From an uncultured Anaerolineales bacterium (GTDB lineage: Bacteria > Planctomycetota > Phycisphaerae > FEN-1346): DNA of 64,000 nt. The notes beneath the pieces were generated by a model that was given only the letters and a program-made list of their open reading frames with translations, was not told the origin of the DNA and did not search any database. Made by a program: the position numbers and the translations under genes. Every line of letters begins with the position of its first letter. The stretch's first letter is position 1. Where the stretch lies: assembly GCA_964526295.1 (NCBI GenBank), contig CAZGKW010000012.1, positions 30,643 to 94,642 of the forward strand, read 5' to 3'. Of the stretch, positions 16,096-64,000 are shown piece by piece.

Positions 16096-16184
16096 AAAAA
16101 GACACTAAGTGTCTTTTTCGGGCACGTAAGTCGTTGCGAAGAAGGGGTTTACCCACACAAAAAAGACACTAAGTGTCTTTTTTT
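16096..16184. repeat. Composite AT-rich double-hairpin element (copy D). Two AAAAAGACAC-TAA-GTGTCTTTTT hairpins flank a 40-bp core.
   Basis: Hairpins at 16096..16118 and 16159..16184. The same hairpin recurs six more times at 49.7–51.9 kb. The core ends TTTACCCACAC, against TTTATCCACACC in copies A–C. Confidence 0.85.
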
Positions 16185-49475: not shown

Positions 49476-49705
49476 GCGGGCGTCCCGACGTGCTCCTTAT
49501 GTCCCCTCTCCCTCGACGGGCTCGCACGGCATAGCCTTGGCGACGCTGGGAGAGGGAAAGCATGCGTGTGTCGGGCGAGGGCGAGCCGGGCCGCCGATGT
49601 AAGTCGGCGGGGACGCGCGGCCGGGCTCCCCGCGGAGCGGCCCCAGGCCCGAGACGCGCCGGTGGTCCGTCAGGCATCGGCATCGAGCACCGTGCCTGGA
49701 GTCGG

Positions 49706-49754
49706 CGGCGTTGGACGTTGAGCGCTCGGCGTTGGACGTTCGGCGTTGGACGTT
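49706..49754. repeat. Iteron-like direct repeats: three copies of CGGCGTTGGACGTT (the last two exactly tandem).
   Basis: Copies at 49706..49719, 49727..49740 and 49741..49754, immediately upstream of repeat copy A. Confidence 0.7.
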
Positions 49755-49774
49755 CTGTCTCTGAGTCGAACGAG

Positions 49775-49865
49775 AAAAAGACACTAAGTGTCTTTTTGGT
49801 AGAAGCTAAGCCCTTTATCCACACCGGGTTAGGCGCAGAAAAAAGACACTAAGTGTCTTTTTTTT
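49775..49865. repeat. Composite double-hairpin element, copy A (hairpin / 41-bp core / hairpin).
   Basis: AAAAAGACACTAAGTGTCTTTTT + GGTAGAAGCTAAGCCCTTTATCCACACCGGGTTAGGCGCAG + AAAAAAGACACTAAGTGTCTTTTTTTT. Confidence 0.9.
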
Positions 49866-50219
49866 CCGTGGTCGCCGCTCCCGCCGGGCGCGGCACTCCT
49901 TACATACCCTCTCCCTTGACGGGAGAGGGAACGGGTGAGGGTGTCGGCGGCCTTCGGCCGCCGCCTGCCGTCACCCCGAGCGGAGCGAAGCGCACTCAAG
50001 GGGTCTCGCCGTGCGTTGCCGTTCCAGGGAGTGCGGTGGCAGGGCCCGCGCCAGCCGGCGTCGACACCGCTTTCGTTTCGCGCACGACAGGGAAAGCGGC
50101 CCCTCCGGTCTCCGGTCCTGCGCCTCGTGCCCGCAGCATTGCCCCGGAACATCGTCCTGACAGGACGTTCCGGATGCCGCCGCCCCCGAGCCGCCAGGAC
50201 GTCTCGCGAAACCGTCAAG

Positions 50220-50310
50220 AAAAAGACACTAAGTGTCTTTTTGGTAGAAGCTAAGCCCTTTATCCACACCTGGTTAGGCGCAGAAAAAAGACACTAAGTG
50301 TCTTTTTTTT
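50220..50310. repeat. Composite double-hairpin element, copy B.
   Basis: Identical to copy A except for one core substitution (CACCTGG against CACCGGG). Confidence 0.9.
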
Positions 50311-50445
50311 CCCGCGGAAGTAGACGTGCATGGCGTTGGGTTCTTCCACGGGGAGCCCCAGGTCGGCGACGCATTTCACCTTGCGGTGCTGCGGGCCGTC
50401 CGGATCATTCTTGCCCGGGAACAGGCGAAACCCGCCGCCGGCGGG

Positions 50446-51561
50446 TCAATCGCCCTTCTCCGGCGAATCCTTCTTCGCAGGTGCATCCCCTTCCTCACTC
50501 TTGTCCTCGGTCCGCGGCTTGACGACCGTGACGCCCTTGCCGCGGGAAGGGGGCGCCTCGGCGCCTTGCTGTGGCTGGCGAATCTTGTCGAGGTCGAACT
50601 CGCGGACGGTCCGAAGGACCGTCGCGTTCGGGAACTTCGGCAAGGCCTCGGCCCGGACCGCCGCCGCCTTCTCGGGCTCTTTCTGCTGCACGTGACACCG
50701 GAACAGCGTGTAATAGACGTCCGGGAGCAACAGCGACTGGGGATACTCCCTGATGAACTGCCGGCCCAAGGCCTTGCTGCGCTCGAGCGCCGCCTCGCGC
50801 TCAAGATGGTCCGCGCCGAGCCCGTCGATGATGTCGGCGTACATGACGGTCTCTCGGAAGGCGCTCCCGCGGTGCTGTTCGATGATGGTCGCCGCAACGT
50901 CATCAAAGGCCTTTCGGCCGAGGCTGCCGTCTGGCCCCGTACTTCCCATGATCCGCTGTGCGTAGTGGGCTTCCACAAGAGCTCGCCCGAGACGGAGAGC
51001 GAACACTCTGTCACCCAGCTTTGCGATGCTGTCGGGCACCTCGGCCAGAGGCAAGACCTCGACCGAGACCGGCGAGGAGACGAACCGGAACTCCTTTTCC
51101 TCGACGATGCTGGCCCGAACCCGGTAGCGACCCGGTTTCGGCAGGACCAGCAGGTCGGTGCGTTCATACCGCTGGCCCGCTTCAATCGTCCCGGGGACCC
51201 AGTGGCGCTCGGTGTAAAAGTCGTATTCGATGGGCCGAGGCGAAGGCTTGATGTTCCGGACCACCTCGAGGTCCCAGAGCCGCCTGAACTCACTTTCCTC
51301 GCCCAGCGCGATATCGAGACTGTATCCGTCCCGGGAGTCCCACCGAATCGTGGGCCGCCGAGATGTGAAATGCGCTTGCGACGGGTTGGCCATCGTTGTT
51401 CGCAGCACAATTGGCTCGCCGCAGATGTAGCGCGCCTTATTGGCTCTCAGGTGGAGCTCAAGCCGCCCGGATGGCTCTTGGCTTAAGGCACTCATCGCGA
51501 GTAGAATAACCGTGCAGAGCACAACAGGTAGCACACGCCCAACGACCAGATGCGGTGCCAT
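50446..51561 (-). CDS. Hypothetical secreted protein encoded in a lower-GC (~60%) insert bracketed by repeat copies B and C.
   Basis: Signal peptide MAPHLVVGRVLPVVLCTVILLAMSALS. Codon usage and GC content differ from the flanking genes. No recognisable family. Confidence 0.5.
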   Translation of the reverse strand: MAPHLVVGRVLPVVLCTVILLAMSALSQEPSGRLELHLRANKARYICGEPIVLRTTMANPSQAHFTSRRPTIRWDSRDGYSLDIALGEESEFRRLWDLEVVRNIKPSPRPIEYDFYTERHWVPGTIEAGQRYERTDLLVLPKPGRYRVRASIVEEKEFRFVSSPVSVEVLPLAEVPDSIAKLGDRVFALRLGRALVEAHYAQRIMGSTGPDGSLGRKAFDDVAATIIEQHRGSAFRETVMYADIIDGLGADHLEREAALERSKALGRQFIREYPQSLLLPDVYYTLFRCHVQQKEPEKAAAVRAEALPKFPNATVLRTVREFDLDKIRQPQQGAEAPPSRGKGVTVVKPRTEDKSEEGDAPAKKDSPEKGD

Positions 51562-51582: not shown

Positions 51583-51832
51583 TTAGTCGCCCGCCGATTC
51601 CCTGAGGTCTCTAATGTGCTCATGCGAGAACCGGTCCGGAGGGCCTTGCTTCAGGTCAAACCACTGTTTCCAGCAGGGGATCGTGTCGGGTCTTTCCCAT
51701 CCAATGATCCCGTCCTTGTTCGGATCCGGTTGCCAGACGGTGAGGCTCCCGGTGTATACCGGCGTCTCGAGTCCGAGCACATGCCCCACCTCGTGCGCCA
51801 CGACCACAGGAAGCGATTTCCCCTTGGTCAAG
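51583..51832 (-). pseudogene. 3' fragment of a snapalysin/metzincin-like zinc metalloprotease gene, 5'-truncated by repeat copy C.
   Basis: ..VVAHEVGHVLGLETPVYTGS.. contains the HExxHxxGL zinc-binding motif. The reading frame runs straight into the repeat (MWIKGLASTKKTLSVFFL is the repeat translated). Confidence 0.6.
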
Positions 51833-51923
51833 AAAAAGACACTAAGTGTCTTTTTGGTAGAAGCTAAGCCCTTTATCCACACCTGGTTAGGCGCAGAAAA
51901 AAGACACTAAGTGTCTTTTTTTT
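51833..51923. repeat. Composite double-hairpin element, copy C.
   Basis: Identical in sequence to copy B. Confidence 0.9.
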
Positions 51924-52450
51924 CTGCGGGCCGTCCGGATCATTCTTGTCGGGGAACAGGGGAAATCCGGGGACACAATACGGTTTTTCCCGGCCGCGTC
52001 CGGCGTCGGCCCCGGACGGCCAACGGCGCAAAGCGCAGCCTCAACCGGGGGCTCACGGTGGCGTTCCGGGGCGGGGCAAGGGGCAGGCGGCCGTGGCCCC
52101 GCCCCAAGTGAGCAGCGATGCAGCGGCTGTTGCTATGCCGCCGGAAGCCCCGGCGCGTGGCCACAACAGCTAGTCCGGATTAGCGCGTCTTGCGGGCAAC
52201 CTGCTGCCAAGCCGCCCTAGCCTCCGGCGAGGCCATGTCGAAGGCCTCGGTCTGCTCCCACACCTCGTGCAGCACAGTACGGCCCAGGTCGGTAAACTCG
52301 AAGCACACGTCCTCGCCGAGAGGGCCAACTAGGCCCAAAACAAGCGTATTGCCTGGGGCGTAATGCCCGCAGGATCGCGAAATATGGCGGCGCGGCAAGG
52401 CTCCGTTGGGCCGGGCGGGCCCGCCGCCGCGTCGTAGCGTTGTATTTCAA

Positions 52451-55975: not shown

Positions 55976-56153
55976 GGCCGGCCCCCTTCTCGCGGACGTT
56001 CCTGTACTACTATACGAGAGCGGTCTGCCCGGCAGCGCCCGATTCTGGAGCAAGCGGCCCTATGGGGGCCCCCCGGCAGGTCTGTGACGGGCGGCCCCGC
56101 AGGAGGGCGCGACGAGCGGGCACCCCAAGCCGTTCGGGCCTGGCGCCGGCCGA

Positions 56154-57341
56154 TCAGTCCACCACCCGCCCGTTCTTGTACGCCGTGCCCCGCCAGTGTA
56201 CCCGCGCCAGGCCCGCCACCTGCGCGACGGCCGCCCCCAGCATCGCCAGCACCACCCCCATCACCGCCGGGTACAGGAGGACGTACCACCCGTTGACGCG
56301 GCCGATGACGTACGCGCAGCGGACCGTGACGAGGAGGGCCCCCGTCGCGACGAGCGCCAGGACGAAGCACGCCCACAGCCACGTCCCCCCTGCCCCGGCG
56401 GCCAGGGCGACACCCGTCCCCGCCAGTCCCGCCACCGGCAGCACCGAGAACAGGAGGATCATCACGATCGCCGCCGCCAGGAACGGCACCGACCGGAACG
56501 TCCCGGCGTAGATCCGCGTCCATCCGTGCCACAGGGCCTTCAGGCTCTCGTACATCCGCGTCCGATACAGGTCGCCCCCCACGCCGTTGAGCAGCCGATG
56601 GCCCGACCCCTTCACCGCACGGGCCAAGGCCACGTCCTCGGCCAGCTCGTCCTTGACCCCCTCCCACCCGCCGACCGCCCCGTACACCCCGCGACGGATG
56701 AGCAGGTACTGGCCGCACGCGAACGCCGTGGGCCATTTGGGGCTGTTCACGCGGCTGGGTCGGAACCAGACGGCGATGATCGCCGCCGCCACCGGTTCGA
56801 TGGCGTTCTCCCAGAACCCCCGCATCTCCAGCACCGGCCACAGGCTCAGGCAGTCCGCCTCCCGGGCGATCAGAAAGCCCAGCCCCGCCCGGACGGCGTG
56901 CGGCTCCAGGCGGCAGTCGGCGTCCACGAACAGGAGATAGTCCCCCCGGGCCGCCTCCGCCCCGACCGACAGGGCGTGCGGCTTGCCGAACCACCCCTCC
57001 GGCAGCGACTCGACCTCGATCATCCGGACCCGCTCGTCGCGGGCGGCCGTCTCGCGGACGATCTCGGCCGTCCGGTCCGTCGACCGGTCGCTGACGACGA
57101 TCACTTCCAGGTGCCGGTAGGCCTGGGCCAGGATCGTCTCCAGGGCCGCCCCGATGTTGGCCTCCTCGTCCTTGGCCGGCACGATGATCGACACCAGGCC
57201 GGCATCGCGGAGGTCGGCGTAGGAATCGCGCCCGAGGACCGGCCCCATGGCCTCGACGGCGTAGACGCCGATGGCCCGGACGATCCACATCAGGGCGTTC
57301 AGGGCCAGCAGGACGAGCAGGATCCATTGGGGGATGGTCAC
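56154..57341 (-). CDS. Membrane-embedded family 2 glycosyltransferase.
   Basis: VSIIVPAKDEEANIGAALETI..VIVVSDRSTDRT..FVDADC (the DXD motif). N-terminal and C-terminal TM helices. Confidence 0.75.
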   Translation of the reverse strand: MTIPQWILLVLLALNALMWIVRAIGVYAVEAMGPVLGRDSYADLRDAGLVSIIVPAKDEEANIGAALETILAQAYRHLEVIVVSDRSTDRTAEIVRETAARDERVRMIEVESLPEGWFGKPHALSVGAEAARGDYLLFVDADCRLEPHAVRAGLGFLIAREADCLSLWPVLEMRGFWENAIEPVAAAIIAVWFRPSRVNSPKWPTAFACGQYLLIRRGVYGAVGGWEGVKDELAEDVALARAVKGSGHRLLNGVGGDLYRTRMYESLKALWHGWTRIYAGTFRSVPFLAAAIVMILLFSVLPVAGLAGTGVALAAGAGGTWLWACFVLALVATGALLVTVRCAYVIGRVNGWYVLLYPAVMGVVLAMLGAAVAQVAGLARVHWRGTAYKNGRVVD

Positions 57342-57348
57342 GGGCGAC

Positions 57349-58590
57349 TCACTCGCTCTGGGCGGACGCAGGCTGGGACGAAGCGGCGGCGGGCGGCTTC
57401 CCGGTAAGCACCTCCTCCGCCGGACGGGCCGCCAGGGCCGCCTCGAAAACCTTCAGGAACGGAACGCCGGCCTCCCGGGCCAGCCGCCGGCAATCCTCGT
57501 ACTCGGGACGGGCCGCGACGGTCCGCCCGCCCCGGCGGCCGACCTTGACCCGCACCTGGCCGTAGGGCGTCGCGACCGTGACGGGCCCCCGCCGAAGCTT
57601 CGTCCGCTCCACGAGCGTCCGGCGGACGCCGAAGGTCGCCGTATGACTAAACATATCTCTCTCTACTTCCGCCCACCTGGACGGCGGCGCGAGGCACGAA
57701 AGGACGACGCCCGGCCGGCCCTTCTTCATCGTCGCCGGGGTCATCCAGACGTCCAGGGCCCCCGCCTCGAACAGCGCCTCGGCCGCCGCCCCGAGCGTCT
57801 CGCCCGTCGCGTCGTCCAGGTTCGCCTCCAGGAGCCAGACGGCGTCGGCGTCGGCCCCCTCGGCCGCGGCGGACGGCCCGAGGAGGACCCGGACGACGTT
57901 CGGCAGCCGCTCGCCCTGGCGCGATCCCGCCCCGTAGCCGACCGCCTCGATCGTCATCGGCGGCGACGGACCGAACGCGTCCGCCAGCGTCGAGACGAGG
58001 GCGGCACCGGTCGGCGTGGTCAGCTCGCCCTGCTCCTCGCCCGGCCGCGTCGGGACGCCCTTCAAAAGCTCCACCGTGGCCGGCGCCGGCACCGGCAGAC
58101 GCCCGTGGGCCGTCTCGATCGTCCCGGACCCGAGCGGCACGGGGCCGCAGACGATTCGCTCCACGCCCAGCAGCGCCAGGCCCGTGCACGTCCCGACAAT
58201 GTCGACAATCGAGTCGACCCCGCCGACCTCGTGGAAGTGGACCCGGTCGGGCGTCGTGCCGTGGACCTTCGCCTCGGCCTCGGCCAGGCGGCGGAAGACG
58301 GCGAGGGCCCGCCCGTCCGCGCCCGGCGGCAGGTCCGCCCGGCGGACGATCTCTTCGACGTCGGCCAGGTGCCGATGCGGCCCGTCCGCTGCCGGACCGG
58401 GCGTGACGACCAACCGCGTCGCAGCCAGGGCGCGGCGCTTCTCCCGGCGGACGTCGATCTCGTAACCCGTTATGGGCAAAGCCCTTAGCACGCTGCGCAG
58501 CGGCCCCTCCTCCAGGCCCGCATCCAGCAGGGCCGCCAGGAGCATGTCGCCCGCCACGCCGCAAAACGGATCAATATATAATGTATGCAT
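57349..58590 (-). CDS. larC: LarC (DUF111) nickel-pincer cofactor biosynthesis / nickel insertion protein.
   Basis: MHTLYIDPFCGVAGDMLLAALLDAG..HFHEVGGVDSIVDIVG..TTPTGAAL matches the TIGR00299/LarC pattern. Confidence 0.75.
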   Translation of the reverse strand: MHTLYIDPFCGVAGDMLLAALLDAGLEEGPLRSVLRALPITGYEIDVRREKRRALAATRLVVTPGPAADGPHRHLADVEEIVRRADLPPGADGRALAVFRRLAEAEAKVHGTTPDRVHFHEVGGVDSIVDIVGTCTGLALLGVERIVCGPVPLGSGTIETAHGRLPVPAPATVELLKGVPTRPGEEQGELTTPTGAALVSTLADAFGPSPPMTIEAVGYGAGSRQGERLPNVVRVLLGPSAAAEGADADAVWLLEANLDDATGETLGAAAEALFEAGALDVWMTPATMKKGRPGVVLSCLAPPSRWAEVERDMFSHTATFGVRRTLVERTKLRRGPVTVATPYGQVRVKVGRRGGRTVAARPEYEDCRRLAREAGVPFLKVFEAALAARPAEEVLTGKPPAAASSQPASAQSE

Positions 58591-58684
58591 GGAGCGTCGC
58601 TCCGCGGCGGCCGGGGGATTATAGGCGCCGCCGGACCGGCCGTGCCAAGGAAAACGCGGACCCGGTTGACCGGCGGGCCCGCCC

Positions 58685-59497
58685 TCAGGGCGACGCCGCG
58701 TCGGCCGACCCCCTGCCCTTCCCGGGCCGATCGGACCCCGGCGCCCCCTCGCCGTCCGCCTCGGCGGCGGCCTTGGCGTGCATCTCCTTGACGGCCTTCG
58801 CGTAGGCCGGCTTGCCGAAGACGACGCGGCGGATGTAGAGGAGGTCCTCCAGCGTCCCGCCGATCGGCCCCTTCTGCCGCTTGTGCAGGACCCACCGCTC
58901 GGTCTCGCCTTCCCGGGTGACATAGAGCGGCTGGCCGAGGATGTGGCCCGTGATGACGTGGTCGTTGCGGAGCGTCAGCCGCCAGGCGAGCATCCGGGCC
59001 GGGTACGTCCGGCCCGAGTAGACCTTCTCCGGGCTGCCGGCCTCCTTGAACCGCCACTGCCTCTCGATGCGTTCCCACTCGACGACGGCCTCGATCGACT
59101 TGATCGCCGGCACCGGGACGTGCTCGTCCAATCTCCGCTCGAGGTTGTGGACATCCAGCCGCTTGGCCCGCGTCGTGTAAATCTTGCCGGGCACCTTCCG
59201 GCCGTCCGACAGCTCGATGTAACCCGGCACCGCATCGCGTCGCAGGACGCTCGCCTCAAGGCCGAACGGGCTGGCCGGCGAGCGGCCGGACGCATCGTCG
59301 TCGTCGTCCTCCTCCTCGGGCCAATCGATAAACGTGATGTCGGGCCCGGCGGCAGGCCGGGCACCGTCCGGCTTCTCCGGCGCCTCGGCGGCCGGCGCGT
59401 CCTCCTGGGCCTCGGCCGCCGACCCTTCGCCGACCATGCCCGAGGCGGCGAGCGCCAAGGCCAGGGCTGTGGCAACCGGCAGCAGACGTCTCGGCAT
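58685..59497 (-). CDS. Secreted acidic hypothetical protein.
   Basis: Signal peptide MPRRLLPVATALALALAASGMVG and a poly-Asp stretch EEEDDDDDA. No family recognised. Confidence 0.4.
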   Translation of the reverse strand: MPRRLLPVATALALALAASGMVGEGSAAEAQEDAPAAEAPEKPDGARPAAGPDITFIDWPEEEDDDDDASGRSPASPFGLEASVLRRDAVPGYIELSDGRKVPGKIYTTRAKRLDVHNLERRLDEHVPVPAIKSIEAVVEWERIERQWRFKEAGSPEKVYSGRTYPARMLAWRLTLRNDHVITGHILGQPLYVTREGETERWVLHKRQKGPIGGTLEDLLYIRRVVFGKPAYAKAVKEMHAKAAAEADGEGAPGSDRPGKGRGSADAASP

Positions 59498-59681
59498 CGC
59501 GTAGGCTCCTCCGCACGGAATCATACCCCGCTTCGACCGGCGACGCAAGCTGCCCGTTGTGAGCAAGGCCGCTCGCAGACCGGCGGCGCGCGCCGCACGG
59601 GCGCCATTCCTCGTCAAGCCGGCGACCGCGGACCGGGCCGCCGCTTGACACCTTCCCGTCCCCCGCCGATACTCTCGCCCC

Positions 59682-60326
59682 ATGACCCGGCAGCGGATCG
59701 GCATCCTGGGCGGCACGTTCGACCCCGTCCACTACGGGCACGTCATCCCCGCCCAGTACGCCTTCAACGAGTGGCGGCTGGACCGGCTGCTTCTGGTGCC
59801 TGCCGACTCGCCGGTCCATCGCCCGCGTCACGAGCCGGCGCCGGCCGAGGACCGGCTCCGGATGTGCGAGCTGGCCGCCGCCCCCCTGCCCCGGTTCGAG
59901 GTCTCCGACGTCGAGGTCGCCCGGCCGGAGCCGAGCTACACCGTCCTGACGCTCCAGGACTTCCGTGAGCGGTTCGGGCCGGAGGCGGAGCTGGTCGTGC
60001 TGGTGGGCGAGGACAACCTGCCGCAGCTCCACACGTGGAGGCGGATCGGCGAGGTCCTCGACCTGGCCACGGTCGTGCCGCTGCCTCGGCCCGTGGATGA
60101 GCAGATCGATCTGGGTCCCCTGCGGGACCATCTGGGCGAGGAGGTCGTGGACGAGCTTCTGGCCCGGCGGGTGCACGCCCCGCTCGTTCCGATCAGCGGC
60201 ACCCGGATACGGCGGCTGCGAGCGGCGGGCGAGCAGATCACCGGCCTGGTGCCCGAGGCGGTAGAACGGTACATAACGACCCGAGGCCTGTATGCGGAGG
60301 GGCCTGGAAGGCAGCCGGAGGGCTGA
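59682..60326 (+). CDS. nadD: Nicotinate-nucleotide adenylyltransferase.
   Basis: GILGGTFDPVHYGHV is the HxGH nucleotidyltransferase motif. ISGTRIR lies near the C-terminus. Confidence 0.85.
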   Translation: MTRQRIGILGGTFDPVHYGHVIPAQYAFNEWRLDRLLLVPADSPVHRPRHEPAPAEDRLRMCELAAAPLPRFEVSDVEVARPEPSYTVLTLQDFRERFGPEAELVVLVGEDNLPQLHTWRRIGEVLDLATVVPLPRPVDEQIDLGPLRDHLGEEVVDELLARRVHAPLVPISGTRIRRLRAAGEQITGLVPEAVERYITTRGLYAEGPGRQPEG

Positions 60327-60591
60327 TTGGATCTGTTTGCGCTACCCTGACGTGGTCTCTTGCGGTCGGCTGACTATGCACGGCAACGCGATGGAAGGGG
60401 CCGTTCAGACGAGTCTGCGACAGGGGCGGAGGCAGGGCGAGTGGAGTCCTGCGGGTGAGGCGTGTCGAATAGCCGCCGGCCGACGACGCGCGGGGCCGTG
60501 GCTCAGTCTCGGGCAGTCGGTGGCTTGGGTCGGCGGCATGGGGGCGGAGGGTCGTTGGCGTCTTGGTGGCCAGGGCGTCGCCTGCCCGGGG

Positions 60592-60651
60592 GCCCTGCAC
60601 ATTTTTTGTGCAATGTTCCACGTGGAACATCGCACAAAAAACGTGCAGGGC
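60592..60651. repeat. 60-bp AT-rich near-perfect palindrome (2 A·C mismatches) between the convergent nadD and parB. Candidate bidirectional terminator that embeds parS.
   Basis: CCTGCACATTTTTTGTGCAATGTTCCACGTGGAACATCGCACAAAAAACGTGCAGG. Confidence 0.8.
60614..60629. promoter_or_regulatory. parS: parS centromere-like site (ParB binding).
   Basis: TGTTCCACGTGGAACA is a perfect palindrome. It matches the tGTTNCACGTGAAACa parS consensus at 15/16 positions and lies ~65 bp past the parB stop. Confidence 0.8.
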
Positions 60652-60691
60652 AGGGCGAGCCCCGGCCGGAGCCGAACCGACGTGACGACGC

Positions 60692-61579
60692 TCAGCTTGG
60701 ACGGCCGCGAAGCACCCGCAGGATGCGGTCCAGATCATCCGCGGAGTAGAATTCGATCGTGATCCGGCCCGAACCCGGCTTCCTCCCTTCCTTCACGTCC
60801 ACCTTGGTCCCCAGCACCTCCCGCAGACGCGTCTCGACGGCCCGCACGTGGGGAGACTTCGGAGGCCGGGCGCGGGCCTGGATCCGCCGCTTTCCAGCGA
60901 ACCCCGCCGCCACGAGCTGCTCGATCTGCCGCACGCTCAGGCCCTCCCGGGCGGCCCGCTGGGCCAGCGATACCTGACGCGCGGGGTCCCGGAGGGTCAG
61001 CAGGGCCCGGGCATGGCCCATCGCCACACGCCCGCTCCGAATGAGCGACCGAACGTCCTCGGGCAACTCCAGCAGCCGAACGAAGTTCGAGATGCTCGCG
61101 CGGTCGATGCCCAGCCGCTTCGACGCCTGGTCCTGGGTCTGCGACGTCGTGTCCAGATACGCCTGGAAACTCTCGGCCTTCTCGATGGGGTCGAGGTCCT
61201 CTCGCTGGAGGTTCTCGATGAGGGCGATCTCGAGCATCTCCTGGTCGCGGACGTCGCGGACGACGACGGGCACCTCGGCCAGGCCGGCTGCCTGGGCCGC
61301 CCGCAGCCGCCGCTCGCCGGCCACCACCTGATATCGCTCGCCGTGGGGCCGTACGACGAGGGGCTGAAGGACCCCGTGCTGGCGGATCGAGTCGGCCAGA
61401 CGGCCCAGCTCCTCGGCGTCGAAGCCCCGCCGCGGCTGGTGCGGGTTCGGGTCGATCAGCTCAACCGGCAGGGCCGTCGAGGGGAGGGGCCGCTCGGGGG
61501 CCTCGCCGGGCGACGCCTCGGCGGCGCCGATCGATTCCATCAGGCCGTCCAGGCCGCGTCCGAGCTTGCGTTCAGCCAT
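60692..61579 (-). CDS. parB: Chromosome partitioning protein ParB/Spo0J.
   Basis: LIDPNPHQPRRGFD..GERRLRAAQAAGL..VVVRD (ParB box) and an HTH. The start overlaps the parA stop. Confidence 0.9.
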   Translation of the reverse strand: MAERKLGRGLDGLMESIGAAEASPGEAPERPLPSTALPVELIDPNPHQPRRGFDAEELGRLADSIRQHGVLQPLVVRPHGERYQVVAGERRLRAAQAAGLAEVPVVVRDVRDQEMLEIALIENLQREDLDPIEKAESFQAYLDTTSQTQDQASKRLGIDRASISNFVRLLELPEDVRSLIRSGRVAMGHARALLTLRDPARQVSLAQRAAREGLSVRQIEQLVAAGFAGKRRIQARARPPKSPHVRAVETRLREVLGTKVDVKEGRKPGSGRITIEFYSADDLDRILRVLRGRPS

Positions 61580-62336
61580 CGTCGGGACTCCTTGGTGCGA
61601 GCGGGCCGCCGGCACAGGCCAGCTCCAGACCCAGTTCGGCATAGGCCCGGGCCCCGGGCGAGCGCGGGGCGTAGTCGATGACCGACAGGCAGTGGCTCGG
61701 CGCCTCGGCCACCGCCGGGTCGCGGGGGATGACGGTGCGAAGGACCGGCTCGTCGAGCTTTCCCCGGACCTCGGTCTCGACCTCGCGGGTCAGCTCGGCT
61801 GCCGGGTCGTACATCGTGAACAAGACGCCCGCGACGGCGGGGCGGTGCGTCCGGGCCCGGGCCCGGCGGACGGCCCCCAGGAGCTGGACGAGCCCCTCGA
61901 GCGGATAGTACTCGCACTGGATGGGGATGAGGACGAAGTCGCCGGCGGCCAGGGCGCTTCGCGTCAGCGGCCCCAGGGAAGGGGGGCAGTCGACGAGGAC
62001 GACGTCGAAGCGGGCCGAGGCGGTGCGGGCCAGGTTCTCGCGGAACGTCGCCGGCGTGGCCCGGTCTGCTAGGCCCTCAAGGTCGCGCCCGGCCGGCAGA
62101 CAGTGGACCCCGTGCCACTCGGTTTCGACCGGGGCGGCGGCCTCGCTCGGCGGGGCGAAGGCCGGGCTCCGACCGGCGACGCTCGCACCCACGCCGCTGG
62201 TGGCGTTGCCTTGGGGGTCGACGTCGACCAGGAGGACGCGGCGGCCCATCAGGCCCAGGACGTGGGCCAGGGTGGTGGCGGTGGTGGTCTTCCCGACGCC
62301 GCCCTTCTGGTTGGCTACCGCGACGGTGATCGGCAC
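61572..62336 (-). CDS. parA: Chromosome partitioning ATPase ParA/Soj.
   Basis: VPITVAVANQKGGVGKTTTATTLA is the deviant Walker A. The start is probably the GTG near 62336. The ORF is open to a TTG at 62447, through a C10 tract. Confidence 0.85.
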   Translation of the reverse strand: MPITVAVANQKGGVGKTTTATTLAHVLGLMGRRVLLVDVDPQGNATSGVGASVAGRSPAFAPPSEAAAPVETEWHGVHCLPAGRDLEGLADRATPATFRENLARTASARFDVVLVDCPPSLGPLTRSALAAGDFVLIPIQCEYYPLEGLVQLLGAVRRARARTHRPAVAGVLFTMYDPAAELTREVETEVRGKLDEPVLRTVIPRDPAVAEAPSHCLSVIDYAPRSPGARAYAELGLELACAGGPLAPRSPDDG

Positions 62337-62946
62337 GTGGCCCTCCGACGGGGGATTGTATCGCGCGGGGCAGGGGACGCAACGGCAAATCGGGTCGGCC
62401 CCCCCCCCGCGGACGGGGCCGAGCGGAAGCGCACACCCCCGGCTCAAGGTTATGGGACGTTGCGAAGCCGAGCGCGCGGGGACACGCCCGGCGAAGGACC
62501 GAAGGGCCCGAAAGCTATTGAGGACGGTAGAGGTAAGGTCACAAGTGCGGTGGGAGCCCGACTTGCTAAAGTGGCAGTTTCGGACCCAATTTGGGCACTT
62601 TTTCGGCCCCGCAGTGTCTCGCCATGTGCGACATTGGCAACACCGTCCTTAATAAGAGCGCCTGTCGGAATGAAACCGGGGGGCGCCGCCGGTTGCGACG
62701 TACGCCGGGACCCGCCACTGGACGGGCAGGCAAGCTGCCCGTGGGGCTCGTGCCGCGAGTTCTAAGGAGGTGGGCTGCCGGGCCGTCAGGGGAGCGACGC
62801 GCAGTTGGAGGCCAGGAGAGGTGGCCGGGCCTGTGCGGGGAGGAAACGGGTCTTCGTTGCCCCTTGCGGCTGGGGCCGGCGTGGGGTAACCTTGGCTTGC
62901 GAAAGAAGGCCGGCCGTACGGGCCGACACGGAATGAAGGGCGCAGC

Positions 62947-63225
62947 GTGGCCGGCAGGAGGCATGTACATTACTCTGGGATGGTCCAGGGCGTCGGGTTT
63001 CGCTACGCCGCCGTCCGGGCCGCCGCCGACCTCGACGTGACCGGCTTCGTCCGGAACCTCTCCGACGGGCGGGTCGAGCTGGTCGCCGAGGGCGACCCCG
63101 GACAGATCGAGGAGCTCCTTTCGCGGATCGACCGCCGGATGGGGGGCCATATCCGCGAAAAACAGGTGGCCGACGAACCGCCCACGGCCGAGTTCGCCGG
63201 CTTCGACGTCAAGTACACGCGGTAG
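62947..63225 (+). CDS. acyP: Acylphosphatase.
   Basis: VHYSGMVQGVGFRYAA..GFVRNLSDGRVELVAEG carries the acylphosphatase signatures. Confidence 0.8.
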   Translation: MAGRRHVHYSGMVQGVGFRYAAVRAAADLDVTGFVRNLSDGRVELVAEGDPGQIEELLSRIDRRMGGHIREKQVADEPPTAEFAGFDVKYTR

Positions 63226-63402
63226 GGCGGCCCAGGAACCGGGGCAGGAAGGAGCGGGGCCGGTCGTGACGGAGGGCAGGGCGGCCCGAGTCGTGCGCCG
63301 CCTGCGTTTGTCGGGGCCTCAGCTCCGGGGACACGCCGCCCGAGCCAGGGCAGGCGGGTCGCCCCCCGGCCGGGGGCGGCCGCGGCACAGCGCCAGGGCA
63401 CT

Positions 63403-64000
63403 ATGCGACTGTTCGGCGTCATCCTGAACACGTTCCGCGAGACGGTGCGGCAGGCGGTTTATCTGCTGCTGCTGCTGGCGGGCCTCGGGGTGGTGCTGGG
63501 GACGCTCCCGATGCCGCTTTTCACCTTCGCACAAGATACGGACATGTACAAGGAGCTTGGCCTCGCGTTCGTCCTGTTCTTCGTCCTGCTGGCGGGGCTG
63601 CTGGCGGCGGCGACGGGCATCGCCCGCGAGGTCGAGGACAAGACCGCCCACACGGTCCTGTCGAAGGCCCTCGGACGGGGGACCTTCATCCTGGGCAAGT
63701 ACCTGGGGGTGCTGGCGGCGGTGGCCCTGGCGACCCTGGTCCTGGGGGTCGTGTTTGTCGCGTCGGTCTACTATCGGGTGAAGCTCGACGCGGGTGTTCT
63801 GGAGCGCCCGTACGCCCACGCCGGGATCGGCCGCGAGATCGAGGCCTTCCGTGCCCGACAGATATACCAGGCCCTGACGGTCGTGCCGGGCCTGGCGCTG
63901 GTGTTCCTCCAGGTGTCGGTGCTGGCGGCGGTGGCGACGGCGCTGTCGACGCGGCTCTCGACGGCCGCCAGCGTCGGCTTGGGGCTGGGGGCGTTCCTGG
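63403..64000 (+). CDS. ABC-2 type transporter permease (GldF/NosY-like), 3'-truncated at the window end.
   Basis: Read directly from the sequence: MRLFGVILNTFRETVRQAVYLLLLLAGLGVV..TGIAREVEDKTAHTVLSKALGRGTFILGKYLGVLAAVALATLVLGVVFVAS.. It is absent from the ORF track because no stop codon falls inside the window. Confidence 0.55.
   Translation, partial: MRLFGVILNTFRETVRQAVYLLLLLAGLGVVLGTLPMPLFTFAQDTDMYKELGLAFVLFFVLLAGLLAAATGIAREVEDKTAHTVLSKALGRGTFILGKYLGVLAAVALATLVLGVVFVASVYYRVKLDAGVLERPYAHAGIGREIEAFRARQIYQALTVVPGLALVFLQVSVLAAVATALSTRLSTAASVGLGLGAFL

Follow-up and report, generated by a model that had tools for sequence, protein, structure and literature searches.

A probable chromosomal parS site at the centre of a 60-bp near-perfect palindrome next to parB in an uncultured bacterial lineage

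parS sites and their surroundings

Chromosomal parS sites are known by a 16-bp core of consensus TGTTNCACGTGAAACA and by the parA–parB operon that lies next to them. In many bacteria parS is found within the par locus itself, and the classical order of genes is rsmG–parA–parB–oriC. ParB loads onto DNA at parS and then slides away from it in a CTP-dependent manner (PMC7053999). Plasmids and phages carry centromere arrays, in which many ParB sites are gathered in non-coding clusters. From quite another corner of biology comes the mutagenesis of quasi-palindromes by template switching, which extends and homogenises the arms of inverted repeats; it is an established process, documented with mutation reporters and by phylogenetic comparison (PMC7202029, PMC8604942). 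The locus we describe here touches on all of these.

It lies within a window of 64,000 nucleotides, by which we mean the whole stretch of DNA that was analysed. In common with chromosomal parS sites generally, it has the 16-bp core and the adjacent parA–parB operon, and, as in many bacteria, its parS sits within the par locus. It differs from them in being the lone site in 64 kb and in lying inside a 60-bp palindrome that is near-perfect. The gene order is also not the classical one, running instead through acylphosphatase, parA, parB, a convergent nadD and larC. Unlike the plasmid and phage arrays, the site in the window stands alone, and its chromosomal context is conserved. The literature we searched holds no description of an extended palindromic parS, nor of palindromic extensions of parS cores across lineages. 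The long palindrome leaves our understanding of ParABS unchanged; we see it as an extreme example of palindromic parS extensions that are specific to individual sites.

The parS core and its partition genes

The core, TGTTCCACGTGGAACA, is a perfect 16-bp palindrome at 60614..60629, with no strand of its own, and is called on its match to the consensus and on its conserved placement. When the window was searched for 16-mers within three mismatches of TGTTCCACGTGGAACA or of TGTTTCACGTGAAACA, 60614–60629 was the only one found, where shuffled versions of the window would be expected to yield 0.08 and 0.04 matches for the CC/GG and TT/AA forms, respectively. A first-pass annotation of this DNA had read the site as a fully symmetric parS, and so it is, as well as the sole parS-like site of the window. 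It has no mismatches to TGTTNCACGTGNAACA and one to the Bacillus subtilis-type consensus. Its closest published counterpart is the Myxococcus xanthus consensus, TGTTCCACGTGGAACG (PMC7022226, Table 1), with which it is identical at 15 of 16 positions. Judged by its letters, then, the CC/GG core is essentially the published Myxococcus consensus, so the type of parS is already known.

The gene beside it is parB (60692..61579, − strand), which encodes a canonical CTP-type chromosomal ParB of 295 amino acids with the GERRLRA motif and with the Pfam domains ParB_N, HTH_ParB and ParB_C. Against the NCBI models, the protein exceeds the cut-off of TIGR00180 but not that of Noc. Its matches in the PDB (7bnk, 6sdk, 1vz0 and 6t1f, with E values of 1e-50 to 1e-52) make the ParB proteins of M. 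xanthus, B. subtilis, Thermus thermophilus and Caulobacter crescentus its best solved relatives. Directly upstream, and overlapping the start of parB, is parA (61572..62336, − strand), 254 amino acids long as called on Logan contigs, with an open frame that extends to 62447. On the far side of the site is nadD (59682..60326, + strand), encoding nicotinate-nucleotide adenylyltransferase and convergent with parB; it scores 159 against NF000840 (cut-off 150) and 154 against TIGR00482 (cut-off 112).

The palindrome lies between the two convergent 3′ ends, as had been proposed: nadD ends at 60326 on the + strand and parB at 60692 on the − strand. From the stop of nadD to the palindrome the distance is 265 nt, and from its other end to the parB stop 40 nt; 62 nt separate the end of parB from the parS core. 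The 265 bp between nadD and the palindrome (60327–60591) are G+C-rich, with no Rfam match and no convincing ORF. The only ORFs in that spacer extend through the palindrome, on one strand and the other, and have the look of spurious calls.

How well does this arrangement hold up in other bacteria? In a similarity search with ParB, the nearest other protein shared 72% identity, and a large group came next, near 60–66%. The protein search turned up no ParB between 72% and 100% identity, and the best match in a scan of genome contigs was 48%. An identical ParB is encoded on two short Logan contigs of the same species, whose intergenic sequence is that of the window. Because 72% was the highest ParB identity among the other relatives found, the palindrome is known from a single independent instance. 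Our comparison set is the seven syntenic relatives for which DNA was available, with ParB proteins 60–72% identical to that of the window; they are taken to be Planctomycetota MAGs, and one of them is so labelled.

All seven have the gene order acylphosphatase, parA, parB, convergent nadD, hypothetical gene and larC, except that the hypothetical gene is uncalled on L212 and that L087 has an extra gene between parB and nadD. All seven also carry one or two sites of the form GTT(C/T)CACGTG(G/A)AAC in the spacer that follows parB, at a distance of 6–147 bp from the end of parB. Two parS sites occupy this spacer in five of the relatives, where the window has one, and two of the seven have an additional site upstream of parA. 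The clade thus keeps parS directly 3′ of parB in a gene neighbourhood that is not the classical one. With the adjoining ParB and ParA genes, the consensus core and the placement after parB in seven of seven syntenic relatives, the proposal of a parAB–parS partition locus stands. Placement conserved at such depth, together with a cognate ParB and ParA, makes the assignment secure short of a binding experiment, and 60614–60629 is very probably the chromosomal parS of this locus. As such it offers a usable centromere marker for an uncultured lineage of Planctomycetota.

What the relatives lack is the palindrome. Across all seven there is no long palindrome, with at most a few symmetric bases outside the core. 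On this comparison of sequences, the palindromic extension is specific to the window's lineage and is not part of the conserved site. The spacer between parB and nadD is itself longer in the window, at 365 bp, than in six of the relatives, where it measures 58–222 bp. In one relative the same spacer (L209:3862–4052) has two long GC-rich hairpins upstream of parS, GCGGCGGGTCTCCTGACCCGCCGC and GCGGTGGGTCAGGAGACCCACCGC, which are inverted copies of each other.

A 60-bp palindrome around parS

The inverted repeat centred on parS spans 60592..60651, has no strand, and consists of two 30-nt arms (60592–60621 and 60622–60651) with zero spacer and 93% complementarity. On the + strand 28 of the 30 positions are paired; in the parB sense all 30 are, if two G.U pairs are included. 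The two mismatches fall at 60601/60642 and 60612/60631 and are A.C pairs when the + strand is read. In the parB sense both become G.U, a hint at the level of RNA, though the chance that both should be G.U on the same strand is about one in four or more and the coincidence is not significant. Outside the core, the left arm (60592..60613, + strand) reads GCCCTGCACATTTTTTGTGCAA, with a T6 run at 60602–60607. The right arm (60630..60651) reads GCCCTGCACGTTTTTTGTGCGA on the − strand, and its A6 run is at 60636–60641 on the + strand. The palindrome reported at first pass is thus real, as is its count of two mismatches. One detail of its quoted letters was wrong: the right arm had been given as TTGCAC where the true letters are TCGCAC.

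Leaving the 16-mer aside, 20 of the 22 flank positions are complementary, which a binomial estimate puts at about 2e-9 by chance (taking about 0.29 as the chance of pairing per position at the local composition). The composition is also out of keeping with its surroundings: G+C is 0.50 in the 60-mer and 0.44 in its central 50 bp, against 0.70 (69.9%) in the whole window. As single-stranded DNA the 60-mer folds at −26.2 kcal/mol (z −8.1), and RNA folds of a 161-nt region around it are very stable on both strands (z −8.7 and −6.7). An Rfam search of the region gave no match at gathering score. Its sole matches were sub-threshold ones to microRNA precursors, which we dismissed as generic hairpin similarity (32 bits, where the gathering score is 90).

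Could such a palindrome have simply landed here, as a copy of a dispersed REP- or MITE-like repeat, or be a chance feature? The window does hold a repeated hairpin element, unrelated to the palindrome and present in four copies, so dispersed repeats are not foreign to this DNA. Even so, we find the idea scarcely credible. The arm motif CTGCACRTTTTTTGTGCRA occurs in the left and right arms and nowhere else in the 64 kb, on which ground we rejected the dispersed-repeat reading at the scale of the window; the core is a parS that the relatives share, in the same position; and the binomial estimate given above speaks against chance.

The arms might instead be read by a protein, either ParB itself, through a recognition sequence longer than the core, or a second dimeric protein. 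Each arm does contain a small inverted repeat of its own, of 4–5 bp (GCACA-N5-TGTGC), and in many lineages the positions ±9 beside the core are often A/T. Against this, the arm sequence is missing from all seven relatives, despite their ParB proteins being 60–72% identical, and the window has no further copy of an arm. Elsewhere the arms vary from site to site within one locus, as we describe below, which argues against a longer sequence-specific motif. We regard binding to the arms as very improbable.

Convergent transcripts and the terminator question

Hairpins between convergent genes bring terminators to mind, and the first-pass annotation had suggested that the palindrome could double as a bidirectional one. 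The likeness is easy to see: the palindrome lies between convergent 3′ ends, folds into a very stable hairpin whichever strand is read, and has both T and A runs. A bidirectional intrinsic terminator, though, is laid out in the order A-run, stem, loop, stem, T-run. Here the polarity is reversed: on both strands the 5′ half of the stem holds the T-run, its 3′ half holds the A-run, and G+C-rich sequence comes after the hairpin. The 30-bp stem is also far longer than is typical. Neither strand has a U-tract immediately 3′ of the 60-nt hairpin. The suggestion did not survive: we rejected a canonical bidirectional intrinsic terminator on the grounds that, on either strand, the T-run precedes the stem and no U-tract follows it.

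There is a second way of putting terminators here, namely two of them face to face, flanking parS, with an outer GC hairpin and then T6 on each strand. The nadD and parB transcripts would then stop just short of parS, and the loading site would stay untranscribed. The hairpins concerned are weak candidates. In the nadD sense, a GC hairpin at 60566..60600 (+ strand, −16.0 kcal/mol) ends 1 nt before T6; in the parB sense, one at 60642..60668 (− strand, −12.5 kcal/mol) ends at T6 and was flagged by a terminator scan. There is more to commend the idea than these two folds, each ending 0–1 nt before its T6. All ten A/T runs of six or more in the 64 kb lie within hairpin structures. The outer flanks without the core fold better than shuffles, with 5 of 200 shuffles as good, on both strands. 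In other genomes (L048, L064 and L020), a hairpin and T-run often stand directly before parS. The difficulty is that hairpins of this quality are common: 27–31% of shuffled upstream sequences and 22–37% of random 45-mers from the genome fold as well. Nor are terminator-like sites enriched in the window, where 7, 8 and 11 were found against 7.7, 5.6 and 9.8 expected. Independent terminators, moreover, have no need of arms that match each other at 20 of 22 positions. We therefore think the face-to-face arrangement unlikely.

Flank symmetry at other parS sites

We took about 60 parS sites from 80 ParB-anchored genome loci as a diverse set and scored the complementarity of their flanks over 22 positions. 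They ranged from 2 to 11, with a sole exception at 15; the window, at 20, is an extreme outlier. Most parS sites of these diverse genomes have no extension, and runs of six or more extra paired bp occurred at 2 of 50 sites, against an expectation of about zero. The exception is L056, a Desulfobulbia MAG, where T6-CCGA-parS-TCGG-A7 occupies the space between divergent genes, immediately upstream of parA. Its 42-bp palindrome (L056:5087–5132) can be written AATTTTTTCCGA-TGTTTCACGTGAAACA-TCGGAAAAAATT, an architecture like that of the window but in a promoter rather than a 3′-end context.

A scan of metagenomes for the pattern T5-N(2–9)-parS-N(2–9)-A5 returned at least 120 stretches, a set that is biased by the search pattern itself. 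The two spacers were equal in length in 43 of 105 distinct sites among the matches listed, and many of these were true palindromes of 36–54 bp. As a control for the bias, we scored only the other parS sites of the same loci, those that the pattern had not picked. At 18% of these unselected sites, against 0.8% in a permutation null, the core was directly extended by five or more paired bp, and at 13.5%, against 0.4%, by six or more; these percentages must be read with the caveat that some loci may be strains of one species. In four loci (L178, L103, L092 and L206), most cores have 5–12 extra symmetric bp, with arms that differ from site to site. At L160, parS comes directly after parB, between convergent genes, as in the window. 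The embedding of parS cores in longer palindromes with variable arms thus recurs across several other lineages.

The same four loci caught our attention for another reason. They are A+T-rich metagenome loci with dense, non-coding arrays of parS, including 11 cores in 2 kb of non-coding DNA at L178:6262–8176 and 8 in 1.5 kb at L103:11456–12942. These could be plasmid or phage centromere arrays; L178 and L103 share with such arrays the clustering of cores, most of which here sit in longer palindromes of their own.

Arms that are symmetric and yet differ in sequence rule out a longer sequence-specific motif, and also a longer unit that was simply duplicated. They are compatible with either a mutational process or selection for the hairpin or cruciform as such. 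If the pattern of extensions is selected, it would point to a structural step in loading at the site; a neutral pattern would instead be a clean natural record of how a palindrome grows from a conserved protein-binding palindrome as its seed.

On the side of selection, the general proposition is that a parS core embedded in a longer palindrome of arbitrary arms is a recurrent, selected architecture, in which the parS hairpin or cruciform, as DNA or RNA, would contribute to the loading of ParB or SMC or to the insulation of the site from transcription, and would be no neutral by-product of template switching. The window would show this architecture in extreme form, and some parS arrays of other lineages would show it at most of their sites. 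We consider this distinctly unlikely. A version particular to the window is that the A+T-rich palindrome has been selected as DNA, aiding the loading of the ParB clamp or of SMC through easy melting, cruciform formation, as the first-pass annotation had entertained, or the geometry of its A-tracts, with the extra strength offsetting a lone parS where relatives carry two. There is something to be said for it. The window does make do with a single site where five of the seven relatives have two in the same spacer, and the G+C content of its arms is 44%, in a genome at 70%. The variable-arm palindromes around parS in other lineages, with whole arrays of them in L178 and L103, are in keeping with it, and so is L056, which arrived independently at T6-CCGA-parS-TCGG-A7 in a promoter region, with no terminator context. 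Set against these points is an awkward one: ParB reads duplex DNA with its helix-turn-helix, and extrusion of a cruciform would destroy the very 16-mer that it reads. Neither hairpin nor cruciform is needed for ParB to load at parS and then slide in its CTP-dependent manner (PMC7053999). The spacing between T/A run and core varies from 2 to 9 bp across the examples, which leaves no fixed bend geometry, and the lack of extension at most parS sites in diverse genomes tells the same way. In the literature we searched, no such requirement is reported. Selection of the palindrome as DNA seems to us quite improbable.

A proposed templated origin for the arms

This brings us to the account that we favour, in which the core is a working parS, the arms are a templated addition made in this lineage, and any effect of the arms would be felt at the ends of transcripts, with no demonstrated role in loading. 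Taken as a whole we hold it to be slightly likelier true than false. Our confidence in the part that deals with the extension alone is much lower than our confidence in the identity of parS.

At the core, events would follow the familiar course. ParB dimers made from the adjoining gene would bind the 16 bp, close as CTP-dependent clamps and spread outward, and their loading would mark the locus for ParA-driven segregation and, probably, for the loading of SMC. The 22 bp on each side would be an inverted duplication that arose in this lineage. Its most likely origin, we infer, is hairpin-templated copying: a template switch across the perfect parS palindrome would have copied the adjoining piece of 3′ untranslated sequence, T-tract included, to the opposite side, and two transitions would have accumulated since.

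Several features of the palindrome speak for such a history. Its symmetry is contiguous with the perfect core and stops abruptly, in register, and both deviations from it are transitions. It is this contiguity and abrupt end, together with the lack of the extension in every relative, that leads us to favour a mutational origin. The resemblance to template-switch mutagenesis at quasi-palindromes is close, extending from the perfect core and the contiguous, abrupt symmetry confined to one lineage to the unrelated arms at other parS sites. For quasi-palindromes the process is known from direct study; for this parS it is a suggestion about origin, and we found no report of template-switch extension at parS in the literature searched.

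The copied segment does not look arbitrary, since its arms are A+T-rich in a 70% G+C genome, and it may have been a transcript-end element. Against a neutral history, a T6 run beside parS is improbable at such a composition; this rarity, and the ten A/T runs carried by hairpins, hint at a function for the A+T-rich arms. A parB transcript that reads through would form an uninterrupted 30-bp hairpin, and the nadD transcript would form the same hairpin with two A.C mismatches. The hairpin may stabilise the convergent transcripts or help to end them.

Origin landmarks and other repeats in the window

The locus may lie in an origin-proximal part of the chromosome, as the first-pass annotation had thought probable. 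When 27 ORFs of the window were annotated with Pfam and tRNAs were scanned for, no dnaA, dnaN, rRNA or tRNA genes came to light; the larger ORFs include secretion, transport and glycosyltransferase genes. The cumulative GC skew has its minimum at about 60 kb, a position with only 4 kb of window beyond it and with weak skew of mixed sign elsewhere. In 2-kb bins from 56000 to 64000, the skew flips at about 60 kb, in the parS spacer, going from −0.11 and −0.08 to +0.06 and +0.11, again with only 4 kb to the right. These are the most negative and the most positive 2-kb bins of the window.

The repeated element mentioned earlier is a curiosity in its own right. Its four copies, all in the same orientation and 85–98 nt long, lie at 16101–16184, 49769–49866, 50214–50311 and 51827–51924. 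Each consists of two identical hairpins (A5–6 GACAC TAA GTGTC T5–8) around a segment of 45 nt, and in three of the copies this segment contains a perfect Escherichia coli-type DnaA-box 9-mer, TTATCCACA, the counterpart in the 16-kb copy being TTACCCACA. The element has no Rfam match and its sequence is unrelated to that of the parS palindrome. The region around it has a G+C content of 0.62, compared with 0.70 for the window. Copies 2 and 3 bracket an ORF of 371 amino acids (50446–51561, − strand) that has no Pfam-style or NCBIfam match. A further sequence, GGCGTTGGACGTT, is present as three direct copies at 49700–49750, immediately upstream of the element's first full copy.
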